NCBI GenBank assembly: GCA_045863295.1
Contig: BTWA01000018.1
Coordinates: forward strand, 1-64,000
Direction of reading: 5' to 3'
Source of the DNA: Candidatus Hydrogenedentota bacterium
GTDB lineage: Bacteria > Hydrogenedentota > Hydrogenedentia > Hydrogenedentales > SLHB01
Length of the DNA: 64,000 bases
The notes below the pieces were generated by a model. That model saw only the letters and a program-made list of their open reading frames with translations. It was not told the DNA's origin and made no database searches. Shown piece by piece: positions 34,506-46,600 of this stretch; the first letter of the stretch is position 1, and every line of letters starts with the position of its first letter. The translations under genes and the position numbers were made by a program.

Positions 34506-37109
34506 CTACGCCGCGTGTATTTGCGTTCCAGGCAATAGCGCCACTTGTTCTGCCCGCAAATCAAGTGCAAAGCCCCGCTTTGGAATTGTGCGGATCAGCT
34601 TCTCGCGTCCAGGCACAACGCCGGTAATACGTTCCAGCAGTTTCTTCTTTTGAAAATGCATCTGCGCAGGCTCCACGACAATTTCACCCCAAAGCGCTAT
34701 ATAGATCGACTCATACGGAACACATTCGCCAGGAACTTCCGCCAGGCATCGCATCAGTCGAAACTGTTTCTCCTGCAATCGAACCACGCGGCCGTCCAGA
34801 TGAATTTCACCCGGTTTGCGATCGTCCAGCACCAGTACTGGCTGCATTGCCCGACTTGTTCGATGCATTGCTTTTGCCCCTTGACCACGCACCTCACCCT
34901 GTGCCCATGTTCGCAGTGCGCGTGCCGTACCCGCCGAAACCCATTTTGTCAGCAACGCGTCGGTTGCATCGGCCAATGCTTCCGGCATATGCAGCCCCAT
35001 TCGCTCAAAGGCTATGGCTGTGTGACGTGTCACGTCGGTTTGCCCCAGCGTCATTATCCGTGCCGCTTCCGAGTGCAGTCCGTATTGCACCCGTTCCGCA
35101 GTACGCCGGATTTCGTCTACAAAGCTCCGTTTGGCCGCCATGGCTTCGGCAATGGCCGCTGCGGCGTCCAGCAGCCAACTCACCTGATCGGCCGCCTCGC
35201 CAATCTGTCCCGCGAAGACATGGTACCGCTCCTCCAATTCGTATAGATCGGCTTCGCGAATCCACTCGTCCAGAATGAGCGCCGCCTTGACTGCCCGAAC
35301 TTCCTCGTAAAAAGGCTTCACGGTCGCATGCCGCAATCGATTCAGCGGTACATCGGCTTCGTCCTGCGTCTCTCTTGCGCGGCGCTTCAGTCGGTTAACG
35401 TAGTCCGATTGGTCGTACTCTTGTGCTGCGAGGGCCATTTGAATCAACTTGCCGTCCGCAGTCATCGCCGCCGCCAGGATCAAGTCGATGGGCAACCACT
35501 CACGCGTTTCCGACTCGCGCACCCAATATGCCAGTTCCCGTGCCGTATCAATCGATATTCCTTTGGACGCGACCGCATGCCCAAACGGCGTCGCCGACAG
35601 CCTTCCATCCGCATCAGACTGAACCAACCCCGCGTCCCGTACTCGATGCATTGCCGCGCGGATTCGGTTTTCAACCTCGTCCACCGTACAGGTCTCTGGC
35701 CAAATCCAGCTTCCGGACAATGTCGCGTCAAAAAATTGGGCCAAATCGGAATCCGTCCTGCATGTGCGCGAGGCGACCAATCGGAGCACATGATCCTCCA
35801 GTGGGTCCTGCGCCAGCCGCGGCGTGATTCGTTCGCGGTCGCCATCCACATATCGCCGCCAAAGGGTGGCCCGATCATAGGGAGAAGTGGCGATCACAAT
35901 CGATCGCCCAAAAGGAATTCCAGTGCCAAACCTGCCCGCCCGCCCGCCCATGTTTTCGTATTCCGCGCGCAAAATAGGCGTTTTCCACGGCATGCCAAAC
36001 CGGCTGTCAAACTGCCATTTGTCGGTGGTAATAAAAACGTTCTGTGCGGGAAGATTCAGGCCAACCGCAAGTGTGCTGGTTGCCACCAACGCTTTCACCT
36101 CGCCGGAGCGAAACGCATTCTCCACAATAACGCGTTCGTCCCGGGACAAGTCGGCATTATGAAATGCGACACCGTGCGCCAGGGTTTCCATCAACATATC
36201 CCTGGAATGCGTCGCTTCCAGCCGTTGCATTGCCACCAAGGCCTCGCTCGCGGGAGTACTCGACACCCGCTGCGCCAGCACATGCGCCCCGTTCCGCGTC
36301 TCCGCCTTGGCCTTCACAAACACGAGACACGGCTCTTCACGATCCACAAATGCGCTGACATTGTCCGCGAGGATTTCCCACATGGAATCCGAATGCGTAT
36401 GAATCAGCCGCTCTTCCGATTCCGAATACTCGTTGTGCGTCCGGTAAGAGAACACACCGTCATGCAGGACCCCGAATCGCAACTCAACCGGTCGTCGCTC
36501 ATACACCACCATTTCGGCATTCATCCAATGAGCCAGCTTGTCGGCGTGACCAATCACAGCCGACAAGCCGATCAATCGACGCTTCGATCGCAGGATACGT
36601 GTTAACAGCAGTTCGGCCTGCGCCCCGCGCTCGGGATCGGACAGCAACTCCAACTCATCCGCGACGACCAGTTCGATTTCCTCCAACCGTTCAGGCCGAC
36701 GCACCAACAACTGCCCCAGTTTCTCGTACACGACGACTGCAATCGAAAAGTCGCCCTGTTCCAATGCGCGGTCATGCTCCCGACGGTCACGCGTGGAAAT
36801 AATGACCTTCAGTCCATACGGCTCATACTTAGCACGAAAGCCCGCCCACTTCTCCTCGGCAAGGGCCTTCAACGGCACGAGGTACACGACCTTCTTCCGC
36901 TTCAGCGCGGTTTGAATCGCCGCCATCTCCCCCACGAAGGTCTTTCCGGAACTGGTGGGGGCCTGAATCAGCAGATTGCCACTGGTAAACAGGCAATGGC
37001 GCTTAATGGCGAGTTCTTGAAGTGGAAGGAGGGTTTCGCCCTCTTCCTCCTGCCAAAGGCGGATAATCTCCGGGGGAATGTCGTACCGCAACAATTCGGT
37101 TAATTTCAT
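34506..37109 (-). CDS. Ski2/Hel308-like SF2 helicase with C-terminal OmpR/PhoB-type winged-helix domain
   Basis: APTSSGKT, VPLKALAEEK, RPVEL, GVAFHNA, ATSTLAVGLNLPA and MGGRAGR; C-terminal ...LQEKQFRLM...LWG...IRTIPKRGF. Confidence 0.85.
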   Translation of the reverse strand: MKLTELLRYDIPPEIIRLWQEEEGETLLPLQELAIKRHCLFTSGNLLIQAPTSSGKTFVGEMAAIQTALKRKKVVYLVPLKALAEEKWAGFRAKYEPYGLKVIISTRDRREHDRALEQGDFSIAVVVYEKLGQLLVRRPERLEEIELVVADELELLSDPERGAQAELLLTRILRSKRRLIGLSAVIGHADKLAHWMNAEMVVYERRPVELRFGVLHDGVFSYRTHNEYSESEERLIHTHSDSMWEILADNVSAFVDREEPCLVFVKAKAETRNGAHVLAQRVSSTPASEALVAMQRLEATHSRDMLMETLAHGVAFHNADLSRDERVIVENAFRSGEVKALVATSTLAVGLNLPAQNVFITTDKWQFDSRFGMPWKTPILRAEYENMGGRAGRFGTGIPFGRSIVIATSPYDRATLWRRYVDGDRERITPRLAQDPLEDHVLRLVASRTCRTDSDLAQFFDATLSGSWIWPETCTVDEVENRIRAAMHRVRDAGLVQSDADGRLSATPFGHAVASKGISIDTARELAYWVRESETREWLPIDLILAAAMTADGKLIQMALAAQEYDQSDYVNRLKRRARETQDEADVPLNRLRHATVKPFYEEVRAVKAALILDEWIREADLYELEERYHVFAGQIGEAADQVSWLLDAAAAIAEAMAAKRSFVDEIRRTAERVQYGLHSEAARIMTLGQTDVTRHTAIAFERMGLHMPEALADATDALLTKWVSAGTARALRTWAQGEVRGQGAKAMHRTSRAMQPVLVLDDRKPGEIHLDGRVVRLQEKQFRLMRCLAEVPGECVPYESIYIALWGEIVVEPAQMHFQKKKLLERITGVVPGREKLIRTIPKRGFALDLRAEQVALLPGTQIHAA

Positions 37110-37135
37110 CGGGGGACCCTCCCTATTCAGGAGGG

Positions 37136-37164
37136 ATAATACTGAAAATTTATTTAGTTGTCAA
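37136..37164 (-). promoter_or_regulatory. Near-consensus sigma-70 promoter of the helicase gene
   Basis: Minus strand TTGACA-17 bp-TATTAT. Confidence 0.8.
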
Positions 37165-37183
37165 GCCCCCGTTCCACAATAGG

Positions 37184-37215
37184 AACCCATAGGACGCAAC
37201 CGCCCTATGGGTTTT
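37184..37215. terminator. Hairpin closing the kinase operon
   Basis: 10-bp stem AACCCATAGG/CCTATGGGTT; the T-run is clearer on the plus strand. Confidence 0.55.
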
Positions 37216-37240
37216 CAATGCAGCGCGTTCGAAGAGAATG

Positions 37241-37318
37241 TCAGGTGAAGAACCCGACGAAGAAATTGATAAACAATTGCATTGCAACCAGGATCAAGCC
37301 AAAAACGATGATAAACAT
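37241..37318 (-). CDS. Putative 25-aa hydrophobic peptide (MFIIVFGLILVAMQLFINFFVGFFT), not in the ORF track
   Basis: Translated by hand. GAGGGGAGAGGA lies about 6 nt before the ATG, 22 nt after the previous stop, and the ORF ends before the hairpin. Confidence 0.55.
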   Translation of the reverse strand: MFIIVFGLILVAMQLFINFFVGFFT

Positions 37319-37340
37319 GGAGTGTCCTCTCCCCTCGCTG

Positions 37341-37556
37341 TCACGGATTTTGTGGGTTGACGCCGAAAACCTGTGCCAGCGTATTCAGAAAATTAGTAGA
37401 CGCACTGAGAAATCCGACGACACCCGTTAACAAAAGAACTATCTGAGAGCCTTGACCAATGAATATGTTCGGTATCGCCAGAATCGTTTGGAAGATGCCC
37501 AACAACTGGGCAATCGGTTCGAACTGGGCCTTCGCGGGCAACGTGTATCGCTTCAT
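37341..37556 (-). CDS. 71-aa hydrophobic protein with a short basic leader (prepilin-like)
   Basis: ATG overlaps the barrel stop (ATGA); GGAGG RBS; sequence MKRYTLPAKA-QFEPIAQLLGIF... Confidence 0.7.
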   Translation of the reverse strand: MKRYTLPAKAQFEPIAQLLGIFQTILAIPNIFIGQGSQIVLLLTGVVGFLSASTNFLNTLAQVFGVNPQNP

Positions 37557-39022
37557 TTCTTCGCCTCCTGCACCGGGCCTTGGTCGTTCTTGGCCCGCTT
37601 GTTTCGTTTCCAAAGGTTCCGGTCGAAATAGATTACCGTCGAAAGCATCACGCGATTCTGCACGACATCTTCGTCGAATCCGCGAATGCCTCGCAAGAAA
37701 TCCGAGTTTACATCATCGCCATACCGCAATTGATACGCGAGGTCGATATTCACGCTCTCATTAATCAGACAGCCCACGCCTACGGCGAAGCCATAAAAAC
37801 TGTCCGGCGCCCCTGTGGCCGGCTCCTGATCGTAAAATACACCGCCGCGCAAGCTCCACAACCGCTTGAACACTTCGTCCGGCTGTTTGGGGATGAAGAC
37901 ATATTCCGCCCCAAACCGTACCGTATACGTCGGGTCGAAATCCTGCGCAAACCAGATGTCATCGAGGTTGCTTGCATCCACGAGCGAGATGCGGTTTCCA
38001 TCCCGCCCCTTAAACCAGAAGTCGTTCCAGTCCGTACGCGAAACGTCCATCGCCAGTGTCAACCGGTCGTTTGGCCGGTAGGCCGCACCCACCGCCAGCG
38101 TTGCCGGAAAACTGATGTCCCGAGGTTCCTTCGTAATTGAGGGGAGGAAAAAAGCGCCGCCTCCCGTGAGCGAATAGTTAGAACGGATGCTGCGCTGCTC
38201 GAAATCGGCCCGGCCGACCCATCCGGTGTCGTATCTCGCGCCAAAGCTCCATTGCTCGTTCATATCCCAAAGCAGTCCGATGGAAAGGTTATATCCAGTC
38301 AGGTCTTTGTACTCGTCATGCGACGTGGACGAGTTCAGCGTGACTCCGTTGGCGCTTTGCGAAAAGGTGGTCGTCTTCAGGTCTTGTTCCCACGAGTTGT
38401 CAGAAATGAACGTGCTTCGCCAAAAATTGAGCGCAACACCCAGCGACAAACGGTGCGTTAATTCCATCGCAATGGCAGGGGAGACCGTGCTGATAGACCC
38501 GTTCTGTTCAAACTTCATGTTCAGGTAGTTGTTGGTAATGGTGCCCGCCGCCGCACCCGCGTTGCCGGGCGCCACGGAAAACGTGTTGAACTGTAAATCA
38601 AAGTTGCGCGTGAAATCGTATTTATGCTGGTAATACAGCCCCACCACCACGTTCCGGTTGAGCACGGTAAACGGCAAGGGGTAGGTAAGGCTTAGAAAGT
38701 TCAGGTTGAACGCATGGTCGTTGTGCCAGGAATCGACCTCGTCATGAAAATCCGCGGAGAACCCTTCGTAGATGCCGTTATACGAGCCAACGATTGCAAT
38801 CTCCGGCACTTCCAACTGCACCAGCCCAGCGGGATTCCACGAAGCCGCGCTTGCGTCGTCCGCGATTGCCACGAAGGCATCCGACATGCCCGCCGCGCGT
38901 GCACCAGACCCCACCGGGCTCGGCGAAACAGAGATTTCCAATTCCTGTGCGGGCGCCGTGGCCGCAAGCAACAACGCAACGGCCAGACACCCTAGTAGCG
39001 TATGCAGGGTTCTATTTGACAA
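37553..39022 (-). CDS. Outer-membrane beta-barrel, FadL/OmpP1/PorV-like (TTG start inferred)
   Basis: GSGARAAGMSDAFVAIADDASAASWNPAGL N-terminal signature; alternating beta-strands; signal peptide; ...STVIYF near the C-terminus. Confidence 0.8.
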   Translation of the reverse strand: MSNRTLHTLLGCLAVALLLAATAPAQELEISVSPSPVGSGARAAGMSDAFVAIADDASAASWNPAGLVQLEVPEIAIVGSYNGIYEGFSADFHDEVDSWHNDHAFNLNFLSLTYPLPFTVLNRNVVVGLYYQHKYDFTRNFDLQFNTFSVAPGNAGAAAGTITNNYLNMKFEQNGSISTVSPAIAMELTHRLSLGVALNFWRSTFISDNSWEQDLKTTTFSQSANGVTLNSSTSHDEYKDLTGYNLSIGLLWDMNEQWSFGARYDTGWVGRADFEQRSIRSNYSLTGGGAFFLPSITKEPRDISFPATLAVGAAYRPNDRLTLAMDVSRTDWNDFWFKGRDGNRISLVDASNLDDIWFAQDFDPTYTVRFGAEYVFIPKQPDEVFKRLWSLRGGVFYDQEPATGAPDSFYGFAVGVGCLINESVNIDLAYQLRYGDDVNSDFLRGIRGFDEDVVQNRVMLSTVIYFDRNLWKRNKRAKNDQGPVQEAKK

Positions 39023-41576
39023 CCACTTTATCCCCCACTTGCACGACGCCCAGTTGTTGGTTTTCACGGGTAATCATCACCGCGGCGGTACTGTCCGAAG
39101 CACCCACCCCATCGACCAAGGCTTCGCCGACGATGCTAACTTCTTTATCCACCACTTCATTGGTAATCGGATCGAGGATGTCATTCCCTTCACGGTACAC
39201 CACATACTTCATGGATTCGCGCACTCCTTCCAGCTCTGAGAGGTCGCTTGTGAATCCACGTGTGTACTCTACCGACTGCGGTGCTTTCTCTGGCAGCTTG
39301 CCTATCAACGCCGTGGCTACCCGCCGGATGAGCAATGTCTTGTCGTCGGGAGATCCAACCGCACCGGTCTCCATGTGGCTCGCGGCCACCACACTCGTTG
39401 CCGTGTCGACGGCTTCCAGCCGCACCGTGGTCTCAATACCCACTTGCGACATCGACAACCGAATCAGCCAATCGGTCGGCTCCATCGCTTCCAATGCCAA
39501 CCGCGCACTTTCCGACCCGAGCGCCTCGCTTAGTTCCTGTTCCGCGAGAATCGCGTCGATATTCTCCCTGTCCACAATTGAAAAGCGATTTGATATATCG
39601 AATTCCCGTTCCAATTCCTGTAGCGCGTTTAGCACGTCTTCATCCGAAGACTCGCTGGATTCAAGTGAGGTTTGGTCCAGGAAGGCGATGGTCGCGCGCG
39701 ATGCGGTGACCTGGGTTGTCTCTGTGCCGCGCACATTGACGACCTGTCCCGAAACCCGTGGGAATTCCTGAAAGGTGCGCAAGGCAAGATCGCCGACTAA
39801 CTGCCTCAATTCGTCTTCCGATTCCGCGTTCCCTGCCACGTCCATTCGCGCGACAAACAACGAAGTTTCAGAACTGACTGCCTCTAAGACAATTTCGATA
39901 CTGTCCGCATCGCGGTAGACCCGTCCGATAAGCAGCACTTCTGCGGGCGTGATCGAACCCATCGCGACTCCGCCAAGCGCGGCCCGGCCTTCCCGCGATC
40001 CGAGCGCGGCCGCCAATTGCTGCTCGGAAAGCACTTCGCCAAGGTCGTCACGGTTCACAAAATTGAACCGGTCGTACTTTCGTAGCTCGCTGTCCAGCAA
40101 CGAGACTATCAGCCGATCTTCGTCGTTCAATAGCTGGCCTTTGCCTTTCCACACATTGCCGAGCAGAGACACAGTCAACCGTCCGGACGTGTCTTCCAAG
40201 GGCGAAAGCTCTCGCAGAATGCTGACCCCTGCCGAAGTCTGGTTGCCCTGATCGTCTTTTACTGTCGCTTCCAACTGGTTCACGCCTTGGTCCAGGCGAA
40301 TTCGCCGGCTCAAACGCTGCACCGATCGCCCCGGTACTGTGTCCAGAGGAATGCCATTGAGATCAATTGTGGAAACCGGCGTGGGTGTTACCACATCGAG
40401 ACTTACCAGAATCTCGTCGATACGAAAAACTTGATCGGGCCGCAGGTTGGTGAACCGAATTTCCGGTGTTGCTTCGGCCGCGGCCGGCACCGCCGCCATG
40501 GCCACCACCCGTCCGTTCAATGCCAGGGCGCGAATCCCCGGGGCCACTTCGACGACTTCAGGCCGATACGAGGCGAACATGGTTTCCGGCAATGCAGAAG
40601 ACAGCATGACTCCGTCCGCGGTCAGTTGGCCGCGAGTAATGTTGCCCAGCGTGTCCTTGCTTTCGTAAAGAACAGGAGCCGCCAAAACGGACTTGCTCAC
40701 CCCCGCCGAGAATACATAAGTTCCGTCGGCTTGCGAAGTCAGAGTGGCGGCCGCCCCGCCAATCGTCACAGATTCGACCCCGCTGACATCGTTCACTGCC
40801 CCGGTCACCGTACCGGGCAGTGTAAGCGGCCGGTCAAAACTCAGTGCGGGCCCATCCACGTCGGACTTGATGTCCACGGTGGCTACCGCTTTCTTGCCCA
40901 ATACATCTTCCGTCTCAACCGTGATGGTGTTCTGTCCGGGCCGTAAAACAACCGATTGCTTGAAGGCCACTGGATTGTCCGCAATCTTCAGTGCGTACGG
41001 TTGCCCATCGATGGTGATTCTCGCAATGTAGTTGTCGTCCCTCGCGACACCTTCCACATCAACCACGAGCGAACCCACCGGCACGCCGCCGCTAGGCGAG
41101 GCCAATTCGATGGTCGGGTCCTCAGTATCAGCACCGGCCTGCGAAAGTTTGTCTTTCAGCGCGCGCTCAATGAAATAGGCTGCCCGCGCCGATTCCGTCT
41201 GTTCGTAGCTCAGCCGCAACACGTCGATTGCTTCGTCGTACCGGCCCTGGTGATACAATGCGATTCCCAATTCGCGATTCGGAAAGTATTCGGGAATGAA
41301 ATGCAGTCCGTAGGTACGGGGCCACAATTGATCGCCCTTGCGCGTGAGCATCGCCGTGCGGAAATCCTCTTCCGCCTCGACCCAGTACTTGCCAGAATCG
41401 GCAAAGGCCCGGCCGCGCTCGTAGTAGTTCCACCACCGCCCGCGGAACGGGCCTTCGTAATTCACTTCCGGATACTGGCTCATGTCGCGGCCTTGAATTC
41501 CGAGCGAAGTCGTGGCACAACCGGTAAGCACGCCCACGGCCAGAGACAGCAGAATGTAGCGTTTAAGTTTTGTCAT
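39012..41576 (-). CDS. Lipoprotein with TPR-like, Ig-like and two CsgG/HfaB-like domains
   Basis: Lipobox LTG-C; RELGIALYHQGRYDEA; L.PG.N.I.V...D..G Ig repeats; RFNFVNRDDLGEVLSEQQL and RFSIVDRENIDAILAEQEL. Confidence 0.75.
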   Translation of the reverse strand: MTKLKRYILLSLAVGVLTGCATTSLGIQGRDMSQYPEVNYEGPFRGRWWNYYERGRAFADSGKYWVEAEEDFRTAMLTRKGDQLWPRTYGLHFIPEYFPNRELGIALYHQGRYDEAIDVLRLSYEQTESARAAYFIERALKDKLSQAGADTEDPTIELASPSGGVPVGSLVVDVEGVARDDNYIARITIDGQPYALKIADNPVAFKQSVVLRPGQNTITVETEDVLGKKAVATVDIKSDVDGPALSFDRPLTLPGTVTGAVNDVSGVESVTIGGAAATLTSQADGTYVFSAGVSKSVLAAPVLYESKDTLGNITRGQLTADGVMLSSALPETMFASYRPEVVEVAPGIRALALNGRVVAMAAVPAAAEATPEIRFTNLRPDQVFRIDEILVSLDVVTPTPVSTIDLNGIPLDTVPGRSVQRLSRRIRLDQGVNQLEATVKDDQGNQTSAGVSILRELSPLEDTSGRLTVSLLGNVWKGKGQLLNDEDRLIVSLLDSELRKYDRFNFVNRDDLGEVLSEQQLAAALGSREGRAALGGVAMGSITPAEVLLIGRVYRDADSIEIVLEAVSSETSLFVARMDVAGNAESEDELRQLVGDLALRTFQEFPRVSGQVVNVRGTETTQVTASRATIAFLDQTSLESSESSDEDVLNALQELEREFDISNRFSIVDRENIDAILAEQELSEALGSESARLALEAMEPTDWLIRLSMSQVGIETTVRLEAVDTATSVVAASHMETGAVGSPDDKTLLIRRVATALIGKLPEKAPQSVEYTRGFTSDLSELEGVRESMKYVVYREGNDILDPITNEVVDKEVSIVGEALVDGVGASDSTAAVMITRENQQLGVVQVGDKVVVK

Positions 41577-41597
41577 GACCTTCCGCAGTCAATCCAG

Positions 41598-44225
41598 TTA
41601 CGAGTTTGCTACAGCTTCACGTACCAGCAGTTCCTTGCCCGCGGGCAATTGAACATCCGATTGAATTGTCACGTCCGCCGAACGATCGCCAATGCTGCTA
41701 GTGACCACCGCAAACGCATTCGCGTTGGATGGACGAAACGCCTCATTTACGACCGACCCGACCTCGAACCGCATGCCCTCCCGAACGCCAACATTGCTGC
41801 CCACGTCAATCTTGCCATTGCCATTCGCGTCAACCGTCAACGTTGCCTGAATGGGATATCGCTTTTTTACCGCCGTAGCGATGTCCGCGGCCACTTTCTT
41901 ACCAAGTTCGGTGAAATCCCCTCCGTCTTGCAACGGCATTGACGTAATTACCGGCGTGTCCTGCGACGTCCACACATCTACAAGGCGAGTGGTCAGATAG
42001 TCTTTGTCTTTGACCGAGTTGAATTCAAGTTTCACAAAGAACCGGGCGCTCATGAACTGACCGATTTTCGATTTATCGACTCCTAGTTGCGACAGCGTTT
42101 GCTCAGTAAGTATCTCATTTATCGCGGCCCGGTTTACCATTTCCAGCCCATGCGCAGACGCGAGCGTGTCGCCTGCAACCTGCGGCATCAAATCCGTGAA
42201 TCCATTATCTTCCGCATAAGCAGTCGCCTTTTCGACCGGCATGAAGTAAAACCGGACAGTGTCGCTGGTCCATTCATCCTTGGGCGCCTCCGGCTTCGGA
42301 TTGGCTTTCATGGCAGCCAACACGTCCGCGACAAGCGCCTTGGTTTCCGCCCGCTCCTGAGCCTGCTTTTGCTTCTGAATGAATTCCAGATAGGCGTCGG
42401 CAATCTTCTGATCATTAGCCGGAGCCAATTCTTTCAGCGACGCAAAGATTTGCTCCGCTTTCTCCAACTCATCCAACTTCACATAGGCTTGTCCCAGCGC
42501 CTGCAAGGCTTTTTCCTTCTGCCACTGGAAATTGAAGTTCTGATCTTGTATCGCTTCCAACGCTTTCGCCGTTTCCTCGGCGTTTCCCGCAATCATACCT
42601 TCCAGCGCCTTCAAATAGGGCGTATTCGCCGCCGAGGCATACTGAACGATTTCCGCCTTCGCACTGGCGCCCTTTTGCATGTATGCCAGAGCCGCCAGCC
42701 CTTCGGTTCTCTTGGCTGTGTCCGTGATGCTTTCAAACGTCTTCTGCGCGTCTGCAAAATTGTTCTGCAGCAATTGCGCGCATCCAAGGCCGTACAATGC
42801 GTCCTCGTTTCCACCCGCCGCCAGCGACTCGTACTTGGCTTTCGCAGCGTCCAATTGACCCTGATTCAATAAGCTGTTGGCCTCGGCAACAGGTCCGTTG
42901 TCCTGGCTGCCTCCGCCAAACAACACAACCCAACCGACCAGCACGACCGCCGCCGCAAATGCCGCCACACCGATGTACGTTAACGAACGCGGCTTCTTGG
43001 CATGTTCCGGCTTGATCGCGGATCCGCTCAGTTCACGAAGCATTTCCTCGGGTGCAGGAATCGTTTTCTCCAGTTGCGATTCTTGTGCCTCCAGGGCGTG
43101 CCCAAGATCGCGCGCGAAGTCGTGCGCGCTCTGATAGCGCTGATCCCGGTTGTACTCCAGCGCCTTGTCCACCACTTGAACCAGCGCCGGAGGCAGATCC
43201 TTTCTACGCTCCGTAATGTGTACGGAATTATTCCCGCGTACCTTGTTGATGACCTCCGTCGGAGTCTTGCCTTCGAAGGGGCGCTTGCCCGTCAGCAATT
43301 CGTACAACGAAACGCCCAGTGAAAAAATATCCGTGCGGTTGTCCAGCTCTTCCCCGCACGCCTGTTCCGGAGACATATACGGAGGGGAACCGCTGATCCC
43401 GCCTCCAATGAGCGACGTCTCATTGGAATCCATCAAGCGCGTAAGGCCGAAGTCCGTTATTTTGGCAGGGCCCTCCGGCGTCTCCAGCAGGATATTTGCC
43501 GGTTTGATGTCGCGGTGCACGATGTTTTCGTCGTGTGCGAACGCGAGCGCCTCGGCGCATTGTTTGATTAAACTCACCGCGGTTGGCACGGCGATTCCCG
43601 ACGGATTCGATTTTATCAACGACGCGAGACTCGTGGGCACGTATTCCAATATGAAATAATTCATATCATTGAATTCGCCCCACGCAAAAATATCCACGAT
43701 GTGCGCGTGTTTACCCAGCTTCGCAATCGCCTTAGCTTCACGCTCGAACAGACTGCGATGCTTTTCGTTCATCGGGTTGCGCAGGAACTTTAATGCCACC
43801 TGCCGGCCAAGTTTTTCATCGACCGCATGGTACACATTGCCGAACCCGCCTTCGCCCAGAAGTCCATCTATCGCGTAATTCTGAATCTGCGCGCCAATCA
43901 ACGGATCGCGTGGATCAGATCCGAACGAATCCGACGTGCCAATCGTCTCAACGGTAGGCTCGTCGCTTCGAACCATACGGCTCTGCGCCGACGGGTTTGA
44001 AAGACTCGTGGGTTCGGACCCGCTCAGATTTCGAGTTTCACCAGAATCGGACATATTTATCCTCCAGGCATCGGCTAGGGATTCAAAGCGCGCAGTGGGA
44101 ACTTCGTCGGAACGAACGACCGCCTCTCGAGCAGCAAAGTCGCTCTGCGCCAAGTCGATCCCCTGATTATCAGGGGATTCCGCTTGTTCAGGAGAATCCT
44201 CACCTCTGGCCGATTCACTATTCAT
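41598..44225 (-). CDS. Hanks-type transmembrane Ser/Thr kinase with extracytoplasmic TPR, CsgG-like and FlgT-C-like domains
   Basis: LGEGGFGNV, VALK, HRDIKPANIL, DFG and YMSPEQ; one TM; EMVNRAAINEILTEQTL; IDVGSNVGVREGMRFEV. Confidence 0.9.
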   Translation of the reverse strand: MNSESARGEDSPEQAESPDNQGIDLAQSDFAAREAVVRSDEVPTARFESLADAWRINMSDSGETRNLSGSEPTSLSNPSAQSRMVRSDEPTVETIGTSDSFGSDPRDPLIGAQIQNYAIDGLLGEGGFGNVYHAVDEKLGRQVALKFLRNPMNEKHRSLFEREAKAIAKLGKHAHIVDIFAWGEFNDMNYFILEYVPTSLASLIKSNPSGIAVPTAVSLIKQCAEALAFAHDENIVHRDIKPANILLETPEGPAKITDFGLTRLMDSNETSLIGGGISGSPPYMSPEQACGEELDNRTDIFSLGVSLYELLTGKRPFEGKTPTEVINKVRGNNSVHITERRKDLPPALVQVVDKALEYNRDQRYQSAHDFARDLGHALEAQESQLEKTIPAPEEMLRELSGSAIKPEHAKKPRSLTYIGVAAFAAAVVLVGWVVLFGGGSQDNGPVAEANSLLNQGQLDAAKAKYESLAAGGNEDALYGLGCAQLLQNNFADAQKTFESITDTAKRTEGLAALAYMQKGASAKAEIVQYASAANTPYLKALEGMIAGNAEETAKALEAIQDQNFNFQWQKEKALQALGQAYVKLDELEKAEQIFASLKELAPANDQKIADAYLEFIQKQKQAQERAETKALVADVLAAMKANPKPEAPKDEWTSDTVRFYFMPVEKATAYAEDNGFTDLMPQVAGDTLASAHGLEMVNRAAINEILTEQTLSQLGVDKSKIGQFMSARFFVKLEFNSVKDKDYLTTRLVDVWTSQDTPVITSMPLQDGGDFTELGKKVAADIATAVKKRYPIQATLTVDANGNGKIDVGSNVGVREGMRFEVGSVVNEAFRPSNANAFAVVTSSIGDRSADVTIQSDVQLPAGKELLVREAVANS

Positions 44226-44417
44226 CCTACAGCATCCTAAGTTTTCGTACTAGTTCGATTGCGTCGGCAGTCCCAGCACTCACTTTCGGTTCGAGCCGCA
44301 CAACGCTTTGCGCGCCTTATCGATTCACATTGAACTCGTTTCAGTTGGACCCATCGGATCGATCCGGCACTCTGGGCCAGCGGCAAGGTGTCCATGTCGA
44401 CTGGCCAAGGTAGAATT

Positions 44418-44434
44418 AGCAACGCGAGTGCCAA
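44418..44434 (-). promoter_or_regulatory. Consensus sigma-54 (-24/-12) promoter of the kinase operon
   Basis: Minus strand TTGGCACTCGCGTTGCT matches TGGCAC-N5-TTGCW exactly; AT-rich, IHF-like element just upstream. Confidence 0.8.
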
Positions 44435-44839
44435 CTCTCGGACTGTACACATAAGTCATTTTTTTATAGATATTTATGCTCATTGGGCCGTTTTGGAATG
44501 GCTATCGGAAGCTGGATAATTGACTCACCTTGATCAGTTATTGAACAACCTGTGTCCAGTTTATGGGCATCGGATCGAAAGGAGTGCCAATCGAAAGGCC
44601 ACAGACGGCGATTTGGATCGGATCCCTGCCGCAATTAGTACAGGCGTAATTCGTGTCACTCGAATCAGTTGGTGCAAGTCCGAACCGCCCTGAAGGATTC
44701 ATGTAAAAAGCCCGGCCGACTGGGAAATACAACGAAGCCTTGTGCTATTCTCCAAGCCGTTTGCTGGGTTCCTGCACATAATGAGAAATACGTTGAACAG
44801 GTCGATTTCTTTACACCGACACCCTGATATGCATAGCAT

Positions 44840-46600
44840 ATGACGCAGCCAATCACTGCCGAGCAAGCATTGCGTAACTTGCGACAGCCCAGGGTTTTAC
44901 ACCCGGTTCTGTTAGCTCTAAGCCCACTTTTCGGCCTATACGCTCAGAACGCAGAATACCTGCCGTTACACGTGCTGATCAGGCCGGCTGTAACCCTCAC
45001 ATTGGGAGCCCTGTTACTTTGGATAGCTTGTTCGCTGATCATTCGAGACCATTTCAAGGGAGGACTGTTTGCTTCAACGCTAATACTGGGGTTGGTGGTG
45101 TTGTGGGGACCCTTGGAAGACATCATTGAATGGGTAGTACCTGTTCTCGCCACTTGGCCGCCTGTTTTCTTCTACGTGGCATACGGTCTCTTCATGATTA
45201 CCGCTACTGCGTACATAATTGTCAGAATCCGCACTCGAGGCGACGACAATCTGAAGGGGTTGCGACTACTCTTCATCTTAACGTTAGCTGGGTTTCTTGT
45301 GGCGGCGTTGCTGTTTTCACCTTTGTTCGGACGCCGCGCTGCCTGGCTAATAACCGGGTACCTCATTTTGCTGGCAATGGCCTCCGTTACAGTCTGGCGA
45401 TATCAGGGCGACCGGCTTCGCGCGACCCGGATGGCGAACTGGTTTGGGACAGTGCTTTTGGCGTTGTACATGGTAGTCGTAGTCTACAACTTGCCCCGGT
45501 CAGATGCCCGCGATCTCGACCCTTTTGCCATTCCGGTTTCGGATCAGCAGGACAAACCCGATGTTTACTGCATCATGGTGGATGGATATCCACGGGGCGA
45601 TGTGCTCCGGTCAACCTACGGGTACAACAACCTCACTTTTGAACAGTTCTTAACCGAAAAAGGCTTCCAAATTGCCGACCGGAGCCGGACCAACTACACG
45701 TCGAATCTGGTCTCGCTTGCGGCGTTCCTGAATGGCGATTATCTGCAAAACCTCGTGCCTGACGAATCGCGCCCCACCGCAGGCATGGAAACAGTGCTCA
45801 GGCTGTACAGACAGAATCGTGTTGCCGAGTTTTTCGACCGGCTCGGCTACACAAGTTACGCATTCTCACCCGGACTTGAGTCAATTGAACCGTATAAAGG
45901 CGCCGACGTAATTCTAAAACCGCCCCATGCGCTCGGAGAATTCGAATTGGTGCTCCTTAACCGTACATTCGTGTCCCGCCTGATGCAGGGAGTGTTCTAT
46001 TTTCTATACCGAAATCCGGCGTACTGGCGATTCGAATTCCGGCGTGAACGCATCCTCTATTGGGCCAACCAGATGGGTAAAGTGGCCGCCGAAGAAGGGG
46101 AACCCAAAATCGTTTTTACGCACCTGCTCGTTCCCGATCCCCCGTTCTTGTTTACGCGTGACGGCCACCGCGCCCAACCGTTTGGCCGCGGATCGCTGGC
46201 CATCGATAGGGAATTTCGCGCTTCGCCGGAAGAATACGTGGCTGCTTACCGGGAACAACTTCATTTCACGAACCAACTGCTGCAAAAAGCAATAGACAGT
46301 GTGTTGGATGCGTCGAAATCGCCTCCAATTATATTGATAGTCTCGGGACAAGGTTCTCGGTTCGTTCGCGGCGTCACCGGAGCGGAGTCCATTCCCAAGG
46401 ATATCTTCTCGAACTTCGTGGCGGTTCATTTGCCCCGGCATGACACCCCTTTGACTCCATTGCCCGCGGATATCACTTTGGTAAACGTCTTTCCGTTTGT
46501 CCTGAATGCTGTTTTTGACGCAGATGTGGACGTCCAAGAAGATGTCTGCTATTCCGTAGCGGAGAGTTCCCCGTTGCAGGCTGAGCCGTTGCCCCAGTGA
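44840..46600 (+). CDS. Polytopic membrane protein with C-terminal sulfatase-like (alkaline phosphatase fold) domain
   Basis: About 7 TMs, then PDVYCIMVDGYPR, NY.SN, H..VPDPPF and IILIVSGQG. Confidence 0.65.
   Translation: MTQPITAEQALRNLRQPRVLHPVLLALSPLFGLYAQNAEYLPLHVLIRPAVTLTLGALLLWIACSLIIRDHFKGGLFASTLILGLVVLWGPLEDIIEWVVPVLATWPPVFFYVAYGLFMITATAYIIVRIRTRGDDNLKGLRLLFILTLAGFLVAALLFSPLFGRRAAWLITGYLILLAMASVTVWRYQGDRLRATRMANWFGTVLLALYMVVVVYNLPRSDARDLDPFAIPVSDQQDKPDVYCIMVDGYPRGDVLRSTYGYNNLTFEQFLTEKGFQIADRSRTNYTSNLVSLAAFLNGDYLQNLVPDESRPTAGMETVLRLYRQNRVAEFFDRLGYTSYAFSPGLESIEPYKGADVILKPPHALGEFELVLLNRTFVSRLMQGVFYFLYRNPAYWRFEFRRERILYWANQMGKVAAEEGEPKIVFTHLLVPDPPFLFTRDGHRAQPFGRGSLAIDREFRASPEEYVAAYREQLHFTNQLLQKAIDSVLDASKSPPIILIVSGQGSRFVRGVTGAESIPKDIFSNFVAVHLPRHDTPLTPLPADITLVNVFPFVLNAVFDADVDVQEDVCYSVAESSPLQAEPLPQ

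Follow-up and report, generated by a model that had tools for sequence, protein, structure and literature searches.

A minus-strand operon in a 64,000-nucleotide stretch of DNA from a Candidatus Hydrogenedentota bacterium (contig BTWA01000018.1 of assembly GCA_045863295.1, positions 1 to 64,000; the whole stretch is called the window here) encodes a Ser/Thr kinase, a lipoprotein, an outer membrane (OM) barrel and a small hydrophobic protein, raising the question of what such a set of envelope proteins might do together. The original prediction, made from the sequence alone, offered two answers: an export or assembly machine for small proteins with a coupled kinase, or an outer-to-inner membrane signaling conduit. 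Three lines of evidence supported the second, namely, the gene neighborhoods, the exchange of output domains among sensors, and the shared ancestry of the kinase ectodomain and the foot of the lipoprotein, and we consider it fairly probable that the operon is an undescribed trans-envelope signaling module linking the barrel and lipoprotein to the inner membrane (IM) kinase. What the analysis shows directly is which parts are present and how far they are conserved, that the two FlgT-like modules are homologous, that outputs are exchanged, and that FHA proteins and sigma-54 sites occur together. A full-text search, mostly without subscription journals, found no published description of this composition, in agreement with the prediction that no characterized system shares it.

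Organization of the operon

The operon runs on the minus strand from a -24/-12 site through a leader, the kinase, lipoprotein and barrel genes and two short open reading frames (ORFs) to a hairpin, as follows.

44418..44433, minus strand: sigma-54 -24/-12 promoter TGGCAC-N5-TTGCT, 208 nt 5' of the kinase ATG
44226..44405, minus strand: predicted untranslated leader of ~180 nt, from the distance between the -12 element and the ATG, with a predicted transcription start
41598..44225, minus strand: kinase (sensor) ORF, 875 aa
39012..41576, minus strand: lipoprotein ORF, 854 aa, after a 21-nt gap; TPR-like head at residues ~42-147, immunoglobulin (Ig)-like domains at ~155-455, two FlgT-N-like domains and a C-terminal beta domain at ~467-853
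37553..39067, minus strand: barrel ORF, 504 aa from a putative GTG start, with a 56-nt overlap with the end of the lipoprotein ORF
37341..37556, minus strand: 71-aa ORF (s71), with an ATGA overlap with the barrel ORF
37241..37318, minus strand: 25-aa hydrophobic ORF, probably not a gene, after a 22-nt gap
37184..37213, minus strand: terminator-like hairpin at the operon end, 13-bp stem, -29.2 kcal/mol, z -4.07

The five co-oriented ORFs and the closing hairpin were present as originally claimed, with exactly the gaps and overlaps given there. The perfect -24/-12 promoter was likewise borne out, TGGCAC-N5-TTGCT at 44433-44418 being the sole site with no more than one mismatch when both strands of the 64-kb window were scanned. 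The hairpin (37213-37184) was found by folding and was not listed by a scan for consensus terminators; none of 200 shuffles folded equally well, and its U tract is poor. An Rfam scan of 37000-44900 at an E value of ≤1 gave zero matches, indicating that the ~180-nt leader contains no known RNA element.

Kinase, lipoprotein and barrel

The kinase ORF contains a complete Hanks domain. Residues 118-365 matched Pkinase (PF00069) with 164.9 bits against a cutoff of 31.7 (E value of 3e-48), and the VALK, HRDIKPAN and DFG catalytic motifs were readable in the translation. One transmembrane (TM) segment at residues 418-436 is followed by a 438-residue periplasmic part. TPR families were also matched in Pfam, and the VWA domain was not; NCBIfam likewise gave hits for this ORF. 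In the model of the ectodomain (pLDDT 89.3, pTM 0.83), the first half is a TPR array (structure match with a Z score of up to 15.4) and the second half (~642-875) a FlgT-like module, which also matched the LPHT ring 8z5n and the N-domain of TolB (Z score of 11.6, root mean square deviation of 2.8 over 114 residues). Pfam, the TM call and the model therefore agree with the prediction of a Hanks kinase with one TM segment and a periplasmic TPR/FlgT-like part.

The lipoprotein has a lipobox with Cys20 and a Pfam match to the Ig-like family Glucodextran_B. In its model (pLDDT 88.3, pTM 0.79), a helical head is followed by Ig-like domains, a pair of FlgT-N-like domains and, at the C terminus, a beta domain; Foldseek matched the model to Ig arrays and to FlgT. 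In an Atlas search the head was TPR-like, with similar clusters in Thermodesulfobacteriota and Acidobacteriota. This head, beside the lipid anchor, is by far the most conserved region of the lipoprotein family, and residues C20, W48, R54, Y89, G90, F98 and R101 were invariant in 82 aligned sequences.

The original prediction had given the lipoprotein TPR, Ig and two CsgG-like domains, of which the TPR-like head and the Ig domains were confirmed. The CsgG-like segments, judged from the models, appear to have a FlgT/TolB-N-like fold rather than to form a CsgG channel. The lipoprotein matched only profile positions 42-98 of 210 in CsgG (PF03783; 29.8 bits, E value of 4.6e-7), leaving the transmembrane hairpin region of the profile unmatched, and the sensors of relatives matched positions 40-103 only. 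No CsgG chain was among the 50 matches listed for either model, each searched as a whole multi-domain query; FlgT, TolB-N and GNA1162 were among the matches listed. No Pfam family of curli partners (CsgE/F, subunits) was found in the operon or its flanks.

The barrel matched Toluene_X/OMPP1/FadL/TodX (PF03349) over profile positions 31-387 of 421 with 56.9 bits against a cutoff of 29.7. Its NCBIfam matches were all under cutoff: BamG (NF053685) with 66.1 versus 250, PorV_fam (NF033709) with 52.4 versus 90, and T9SS_OM_PorV with 26 versus 250. By sequence it is assigned to the FadL/PorV/BamG superfamily of outer membrane barrels. Of the predicted FadL/PorV likeness, the FadL part passed its cutoff and the PorV part did not.

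Homologous modules in the inner and outer membrane proteins

The best fold match of both the ectodomain (3w1e, E value of 2.6e-8) and the lipoprotein foot (E value of 1.6e-7) was FlgT of the Vibrio flagellar H-ring (3w1e, 8z5n), at low TM-scores of 0.23-0.28, the match spanning an alpha/beta domain of the TolB-N/CsgG-like kind together with a beta domain. When the profile of the sensor FlgT-like module was compared by hhalign with the lipoprotein family, it aligned to the C-terminal module at a probability of 99.5% (E value of 5.4e-23, 208 columns), which indicates that the IM and OM proteins carry homologous modules.

When lipoprotein residues 460-854 were cofolded with the ectodomain, the score was 0.36, compared with 0.00 for the best of three controls; the runs agreed in at least 69% of contacts, and the partner pLDDT was at least 78. 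In the benchmark, 116 of 157 solved complexes reached the mark, as did 2 of 215 mismatched pairs; scores in the range at or below 0.60 accounted for only 18 of the 157 complexes and for both passing mismatches. Since alignments built for this analysis were used and FlgT rings have been solved (8z5n), the likeness of the modules may drive the score. The cofold is thus a weak pass, suggesting a mild rise in the odds of contact.

Conservation and exchangeable sensor outputs

All of the genomes compared, including that of the window, are metagenome-assembled genomes, and errors in binning may lie behind some taxon labels, for instance "Nitrospirae" or "Bathyarchaeia". Of 41 genomes from the order, 28 had a lipoprotein homolog; the window genome itself has a single copy. 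The lipoprotein and barrel genes were adjacent in all 20 loci fetched from order genomes. Among 80 loci from a species-representative collection (14 of them the same contigs as loci of the first 20-locus set), 70 had the barrel and lipoprotein genes no more than 3.5 kb apart. Six of the 10 misses lie on contigs that stop less than 0.8 kb past the lipoprotein gene. Co-occurrence of the genes in other genomes, a check proposed with the original prediction, thus holds for lipoprotein and barrel, the sensor being present in a subset only.

By sensor, the 80 loci comprised 26 with a kinase, 7 with a CHAT fusion, 5 others and 42 with none. The five others were two kinases truncated at contig ends, two split CHAT types and one TIR form, and one locus counted as sensor-less (L108) carries a cyclase-CHAT-CsgG protein missed by the BLAST rule. 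In the 26 kinase loci, a kinase of the window type lies directly upstream of the lipoprotein-barrel pair. In about 10 loci, mostly from Desulfobacterota, the sensor is instead a 900- to 1100-aa protein combining, by Pfam, an adenylate/guanylate cyclase (Guanylate_cyc), CHAT, TM, TPR and CsgG-like parts, and in one locus it consists of TIR, TM and CsgG-like parts. The CHAT-fusion and TIR sensors each have one TM segment between their cytoplasmic and periplasmic parts.

A profile search with the ectodomain returned 403 cluster representatives at E values of ≤1e-30. The best 150 of these included 77 with a kinase, 19 with CHAT (10 of which also had a cyclase), 2 with a cyclase only, 4 with TIR and 48 with none of these. 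The 20 of those 48 that are at least 400 aa long were scanned and had TPR and/or CsgG/LpoB matches, with single matches to AhpC-TSA/FlgT_C, FlgO and TolB_N in three; the relative P0083 matched FlgT_C with an E value of 2.7e-8. The family occurs in Hydrogenedentota and Desulfobacterota and also in bins labeled Nitrospirae, Bdellovibrionales and Lentisphaeraceae. One periplasmic module joined to exchangeable cytoplasmic outputs is the signature of a sensor.

Several of these loci were also examined for their neighbors. The sensors L084:5014-8283, L091:4563-7244 and L104:4910-8263, all of the cyclase-CHAT-TM-TPR-CsgG-like type, adjoin genes for cyclic nucleotide (cNMP)-binding proteins, a SpoIIE-type phosphatase, and extracytoplasmic function (ECF) sigma and zf-HC2 anti-sigma factors. 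At L097 (5232-6572 and 2959-5196, both on the plus strand), a protein with TIR, one TM segment and a FlgT/CsgG-like ectodomain adjoins the lipoprotein-barrel pair and is preceded by a TPR-S (sensor) protein. The TIR form at L097 has the look of an immune-type output carried by this envelope sensor.

FHA partners and sigma-54 control

ORFs with FHA domains were found beside 12 of 27 kinase-type loci, versus 0 of 53 others. Four of these partners (L053, L060, L070 and L074) are FHA-sigma-54 AAA+ activators (enhancer-binding proteins [EBPs]), and L014 has a fifth. Eight are FHA-CHAT proteins, each adjoining an ECF sigma gene and usually followed by a secreted beta-helix-like protein. Where CHAT is fused directly to the sensor, FHA is absent. 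Two layouts are thus present, one in which the kinase would be read by an effector-bearing FHA protein and one in which the effector (CHAT) is part of the sensor itself and FHA is missing.

Sigma-54 sites precede the kinase gene or the EBP gene in the window and in L014 (TGGCAC-N5-ATGCT), L070 (a perfect site), L074 (before both the kinase and EBP genes) and L060 (before the EBP-kinase pair); these four relatives are all of the EBP-linked ones for which upstream sequence exists. Such sites are also present in L051 and L062. None of the eight ECF/CHAT loci had one, against a background of 0.087 sites per kb per strand. The sigma-54 control that had been predicted is therefore supported, by these sites, for the subgroup of the window only and is not a property of the family. 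The window genome has one rpoN gene and ~25 EBP genes, three of them with FHA. One of the three (G000:C23), on another contig, is a full-length ortholog of the locus-linked FHA-EBP, with 41% identity over residues 2-686.

A common upstream activator element was sought within 300 nt upstream of eight sigma-54-like sites, and nothing convincing was obtained. Only CCATAAACT was shared; it lies at ~44560-44570 in the window and also 5' of the sigma-54 sites in L070 and, as the reverse complement, L062, and may mark activator binding sites. The upstream region of L070 also contains an inverted repeat, TAGATAGC...GCTATCTA, which is another possible activator binding site.

In ECF/CHAT loci, a secreted protein of 500 to 970 aa recurs directly 3' of the barrel gene (L064:13404-15440, L075:7759-9414, L085:13447-14970 and L054:14192-16852). 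In Pfam, the L064 protein matched TrAA12-like/CarboxypepD_reg and the L054 protein matched CarboxypepD_reg plus a subthreshold DUF1565 (scanned as L018 and L016, respectively); those of L075 and L085 (scanned as L017 and L020) matched no Pfam family. This post-barrel protein may be the regulated product in such loci.

Small ORFs

Two small hydrophobic proteins had been predicted, of which one was upheld. The s71 product has hydrophobic segments at residues 15-33 and 39-57, and its homologs, which share the motif PA.AQFEP.L..IG, are encoded directly 3' of the barrel gene in L014, L050, L053 and L070 and 5' of the kinase gene in L054/L016. All of the loci with s71 belong to the nearest subgroup of the window. 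Pfam, NCBIfam and PADLOC gave no family match for s71. Its nearest Atlas neighbors were small phage proteins, including the Dp-1 holin cluster, at 0.85-0.86, which is below the 0.9 bar and in a range that chance often reaches, making this a lead only. For the 25-aa ORF, tblastn against 21 sources at E values of ≤10 gave only chance-level matches, and no like ORF followed the s71 homologs. Having no counterpart in any related locus, and being no more than chance would give, it was not counted as a gene.

Flanking genes and transcript data

GC content across the segment holding the operon is 0.51-0.59, with even composition, and the neighbors are ordinary: glycoside hydrolases, a V-type ATPase operon and dapA/dapB. 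Near-identical DNA was found in sludge and bioreactor metagenomes. Next to the operon, positions 34506-37109 (minus strand) encode an 867-aa Hel308-like DEAD/DEAH helicase that ends in an OmpR-type winged helix (Trans_reg_C, residues 773-849), an unusual fusion. The helicase matched PRK02362 with an E value of 2e-113, which was under the cutoff, and has its own near-consensus sigma-70 promoter, TTGACA-17-TATTAT, at 37164-37136. On the other side, a divergent gene at 44840-46600 (plus strand) encodes a 586-aa protein with six hydrophobic segments and zero matches in Pfam, NCBIfam and PADLOC. Since no homolog of either protein lies beside the operon in any related locus, both were left out of the system. 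A second 71-aa ORF, at 44237-44452 (minus strand), overlaps both the sigma-54 promoter and the kinase leader.

Four of 22 listed public runs, one of them a metatranscriptome, were compared as assembled contigs. The metatranscriptome contributed a single 552-nt contig, which matched 43558-44155 at 100% with a strand switch at 43774/43821. In all four runs there was a depth spike at 43425-43681, inside the catalytic domain of the kinase, which probably derives from kinase genes of other organisms.

A model for the signaling module

How might these parts work together? In the mechanism we propose, the outer part would be formed by the FadL-like barrel and the lipoprotein, the latter acting as a barrel-anchored, periplasm-spanning probe with its conserved TPR-like head by the anchor, an Ig stalk and a FlgT-like foot in the periplasm. 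The inner part would be the single-pass sensor, whose periplasmic TPR and FlgT-like part probably docks onto the homologous foot of the lipoprotein. Some change at the outer membrane would alter the contact between foot and sensor and switch on the Hanks kinase. The kinase would then make phospho-threonine sites to be read by an FHA-domain sigma-54 activator, the gene for which lies beside the operon in close relatives, while its ortholog is on another contig in the window genome. The activator would fire the -24/-12 promoter, inducing the operon together with s71 in a positive feedback. It is the physical contact, the direction of signaling, the kinase substrate and the stimulus that we infer here. 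In a surveillance version of the model, the periplasm-spanning probe would report surface attack or contact to interchangeable immune-type effectors (TIR, caspase-like CHAT or cyclase in relatives), with the output in the window being the kinase, the FHA activator and a sigma-54 burst of holin-like s71; this version we regard as quite unlikely.

A number of observations weigh against the signaling module. The lipoprotein-barrel pair occurs without a sensor in 42 of the 80 loci and must therefore have a function of its own, and 14 of the 26 kinase-type loci have no FHA neighbor. In the window genome, the FHA-EBP is unlinked to the operon and two other FHA-EBPs are present, so that orthology is all that pairs the operon with this activator. 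The lipoprotein may face either the periplasm or the surface, and in Foldseek its run of Ig domains is similar to that of surface lipoproteins, SGBP-B among them. The cofold of foot and ectodomain passed only weakly. The 552-nt metatranscriptome contig is an assembly chimera or DNA carry-over and is uninformative on expression, operon structure and the transcription start. Finally, annotation of the loci relied on a longest-ORF caller, with BLAST or phmmer for classification, and related genomes are non-independent samples.

Alternative explanations

The sensor-less pairs fit an explanation in which the lipoprotein and barrel are a working unit of their own, serving the uptake of a hydrophobic substrate or anchoring in the manner of BamG/BamH, while the kinase only monitors or regulates assembly or load and no external relay exists. 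BamG, itself a FadL-like barrel, is reported to hold the lipid tail of BamH (PMC12611786), and the window barrel scores above the FadL/TodX cutoff in Pfam; the peak of conservation in the head by the anchor and the single copy in the window genome also point this way. Nevertheless, we judge this explanation unlikely. The barrel falls far under the BamG and PorV cutoffs, no substrate-pathway genes recur beside the pair, and TIR, CHAT-cyclase, ECF sigma and sigma-54 are the kind of output that typifies signaling rather than transport control. Those same outputs bear on whether the operon is a conflict or defense system, in which the probe would detect attack on the outer membrane by a phage, predator or competitor and trigger effectors, in the window a sigma-54 burst of holin-like s71. 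TIR, CHAT and Pycsar-like cyclase outputs occur on the same ectodomain, a TPR-S protein adjoins the TIR form, and the subthreshold Atlas neighbors of s71 are small phage proteins; furthermore, the closest known kinase-FHA envelope pathway, TagQRST-PpkA-Fha1, is described as sensing membrane attack (PMC10482370). However, the locus lies amid ordinary chromosomal genes of even composition, the family is vertically widespread in the order, and the holin-like activity of s71 is only hypothetical. PADLOC gave only generic kinase, helicase, cyclase and TIR domain matches and none for the lipoprotein, barrel or s71, for which it has no models. A defense function thus appears very doubtful to us.

The other answer originally offered, that the small hydrophobic proteins are exported or built into a surface structure by CsgG-like rings together with the barrel, under regulation by the coupled kinase, fared worst, and we regard it as highly improbable. 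It would draw on the partial CsgG match of the lipoprotein, on the ability of FlgT-like proteins to build rings (8z5n being among the fold matches) and on the conservation of s71 by the barrel in the closest relatives. Yet that CsgG match extends over 57 of the 210 positions in the profile and lacks the transmembrane hairpin region, and FlgT and the N-domain of TolB lead the fold matches, with no CsgG chain among the 50 listed. As for the supposed cargo, the 25-aa ORF is unique to the window, and s71, found in 5 of ~28 kinase-type loci and in none of the sensor-less loci, has no signal-peptide-like N terminus and a conserved motif that is polar.

Comparison with known systems

The signaling module that we favor is closest in logic to TagQRST-PpkA-Fha1, QseG-QseE-QseF and RcsF, and in fold to FlgT, and it has the full set of defining features of none of them. 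In the H1 type VI secretion system (T6SS) of Pseudomonas aeruginosa, an OM lipoprotein and periplasmic partners are reported to act on an IM Hanks kinase, leading to phosphorylation of an FHA protein in response to membrane damage (PMC10482370). The likeness to TagQRST-PpkA-Fha1 is in logic only, the outer parts having no sequence relation. The window kinase has no VWA match, and no TagR/S/T or T6SS families were found in the operon or the flanks scanned. Whereas the FHA partner in P. aeruginosa is a T6SS scaffold, here it is a putative transcription activator or CHAT protease, and a FadL-like barrel is part of the set. In Escherichia coli, the OM lipoprotein QseG is described as contacting the IM kinase QseE in the periplasm, with the sigma-54 activator QseF as output (PMC6075780). 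That system uses a histidine kinase and response regulator in place of a Hanks kinase and FHA protein, QseG, which is small, is unrelated, and a barrel partner is lacking. In the Rcs system, RcsF is threaded through barrels. This OM lipoprotein is reported to sense surface perturbation and to signal to an IM protein (PMC11709261). Rcs differs in its phosphorelay output, in its unrelated proteins and in having no homologous modules on both sides.

With respect to FlgT, no FlgT_N/M/C Pfam match was found in the window proteins and no flagellar genes were present among the 26 flanking proteins scanned; the module is fused here to kinases, CHAT-cyclase or TIR. The BamG-BamH pair of the Bacteroidota beta-barrel assembly machinery (BAM) and PorV/PorQ of the type IX secretion system are comparable in that FadL-like barrels hold a lipoprotein or cargo. 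The window barrel matches both weakly, and the window lipoprotein was unrelated to BamH in the searches made. The ECF and CHAT (and CarboxypepD_reg) neighborhoods of relatives resemble the context of ECF54, for which a review lists CHAT, carboxypeptidase and subtilase neighbors and proposes control by proteolysis (PMC8999054); the window uses sigma-54 instead. The passage of that review on ECF54 names no set of lipoprotein, barrel and sensor (PMC8999054).

Significance

If the proposed signaling module is correct, it would add a modular family in which a shared outer part, the FadL-like barrel with the TPR-Ig-FlgT lipoprotein, is combined with a plug-in inner sensor that may be a Hanks kinase, a cyclase-CHAT protein or a TIR protein. 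To our knowledge, few routes from the outer membrane to the cytoplasm are known in Gram-negative bacteria, namely, Rcs, sigma-E, FecA-type transducers and TagQRST-PpkA. The ectodomain family comprises ~400 sequence clusters at E values of ≤1e-30. With the operon one could test whether a Hanks kinase acts on sigma-54 by way of an FHA activator, and with its relatives whether FHA-CHAT proteases, or CHAT fused directly to the sensor, act on ECF sigma factors. The module would also give the FlgT fold a nonflagellar role.

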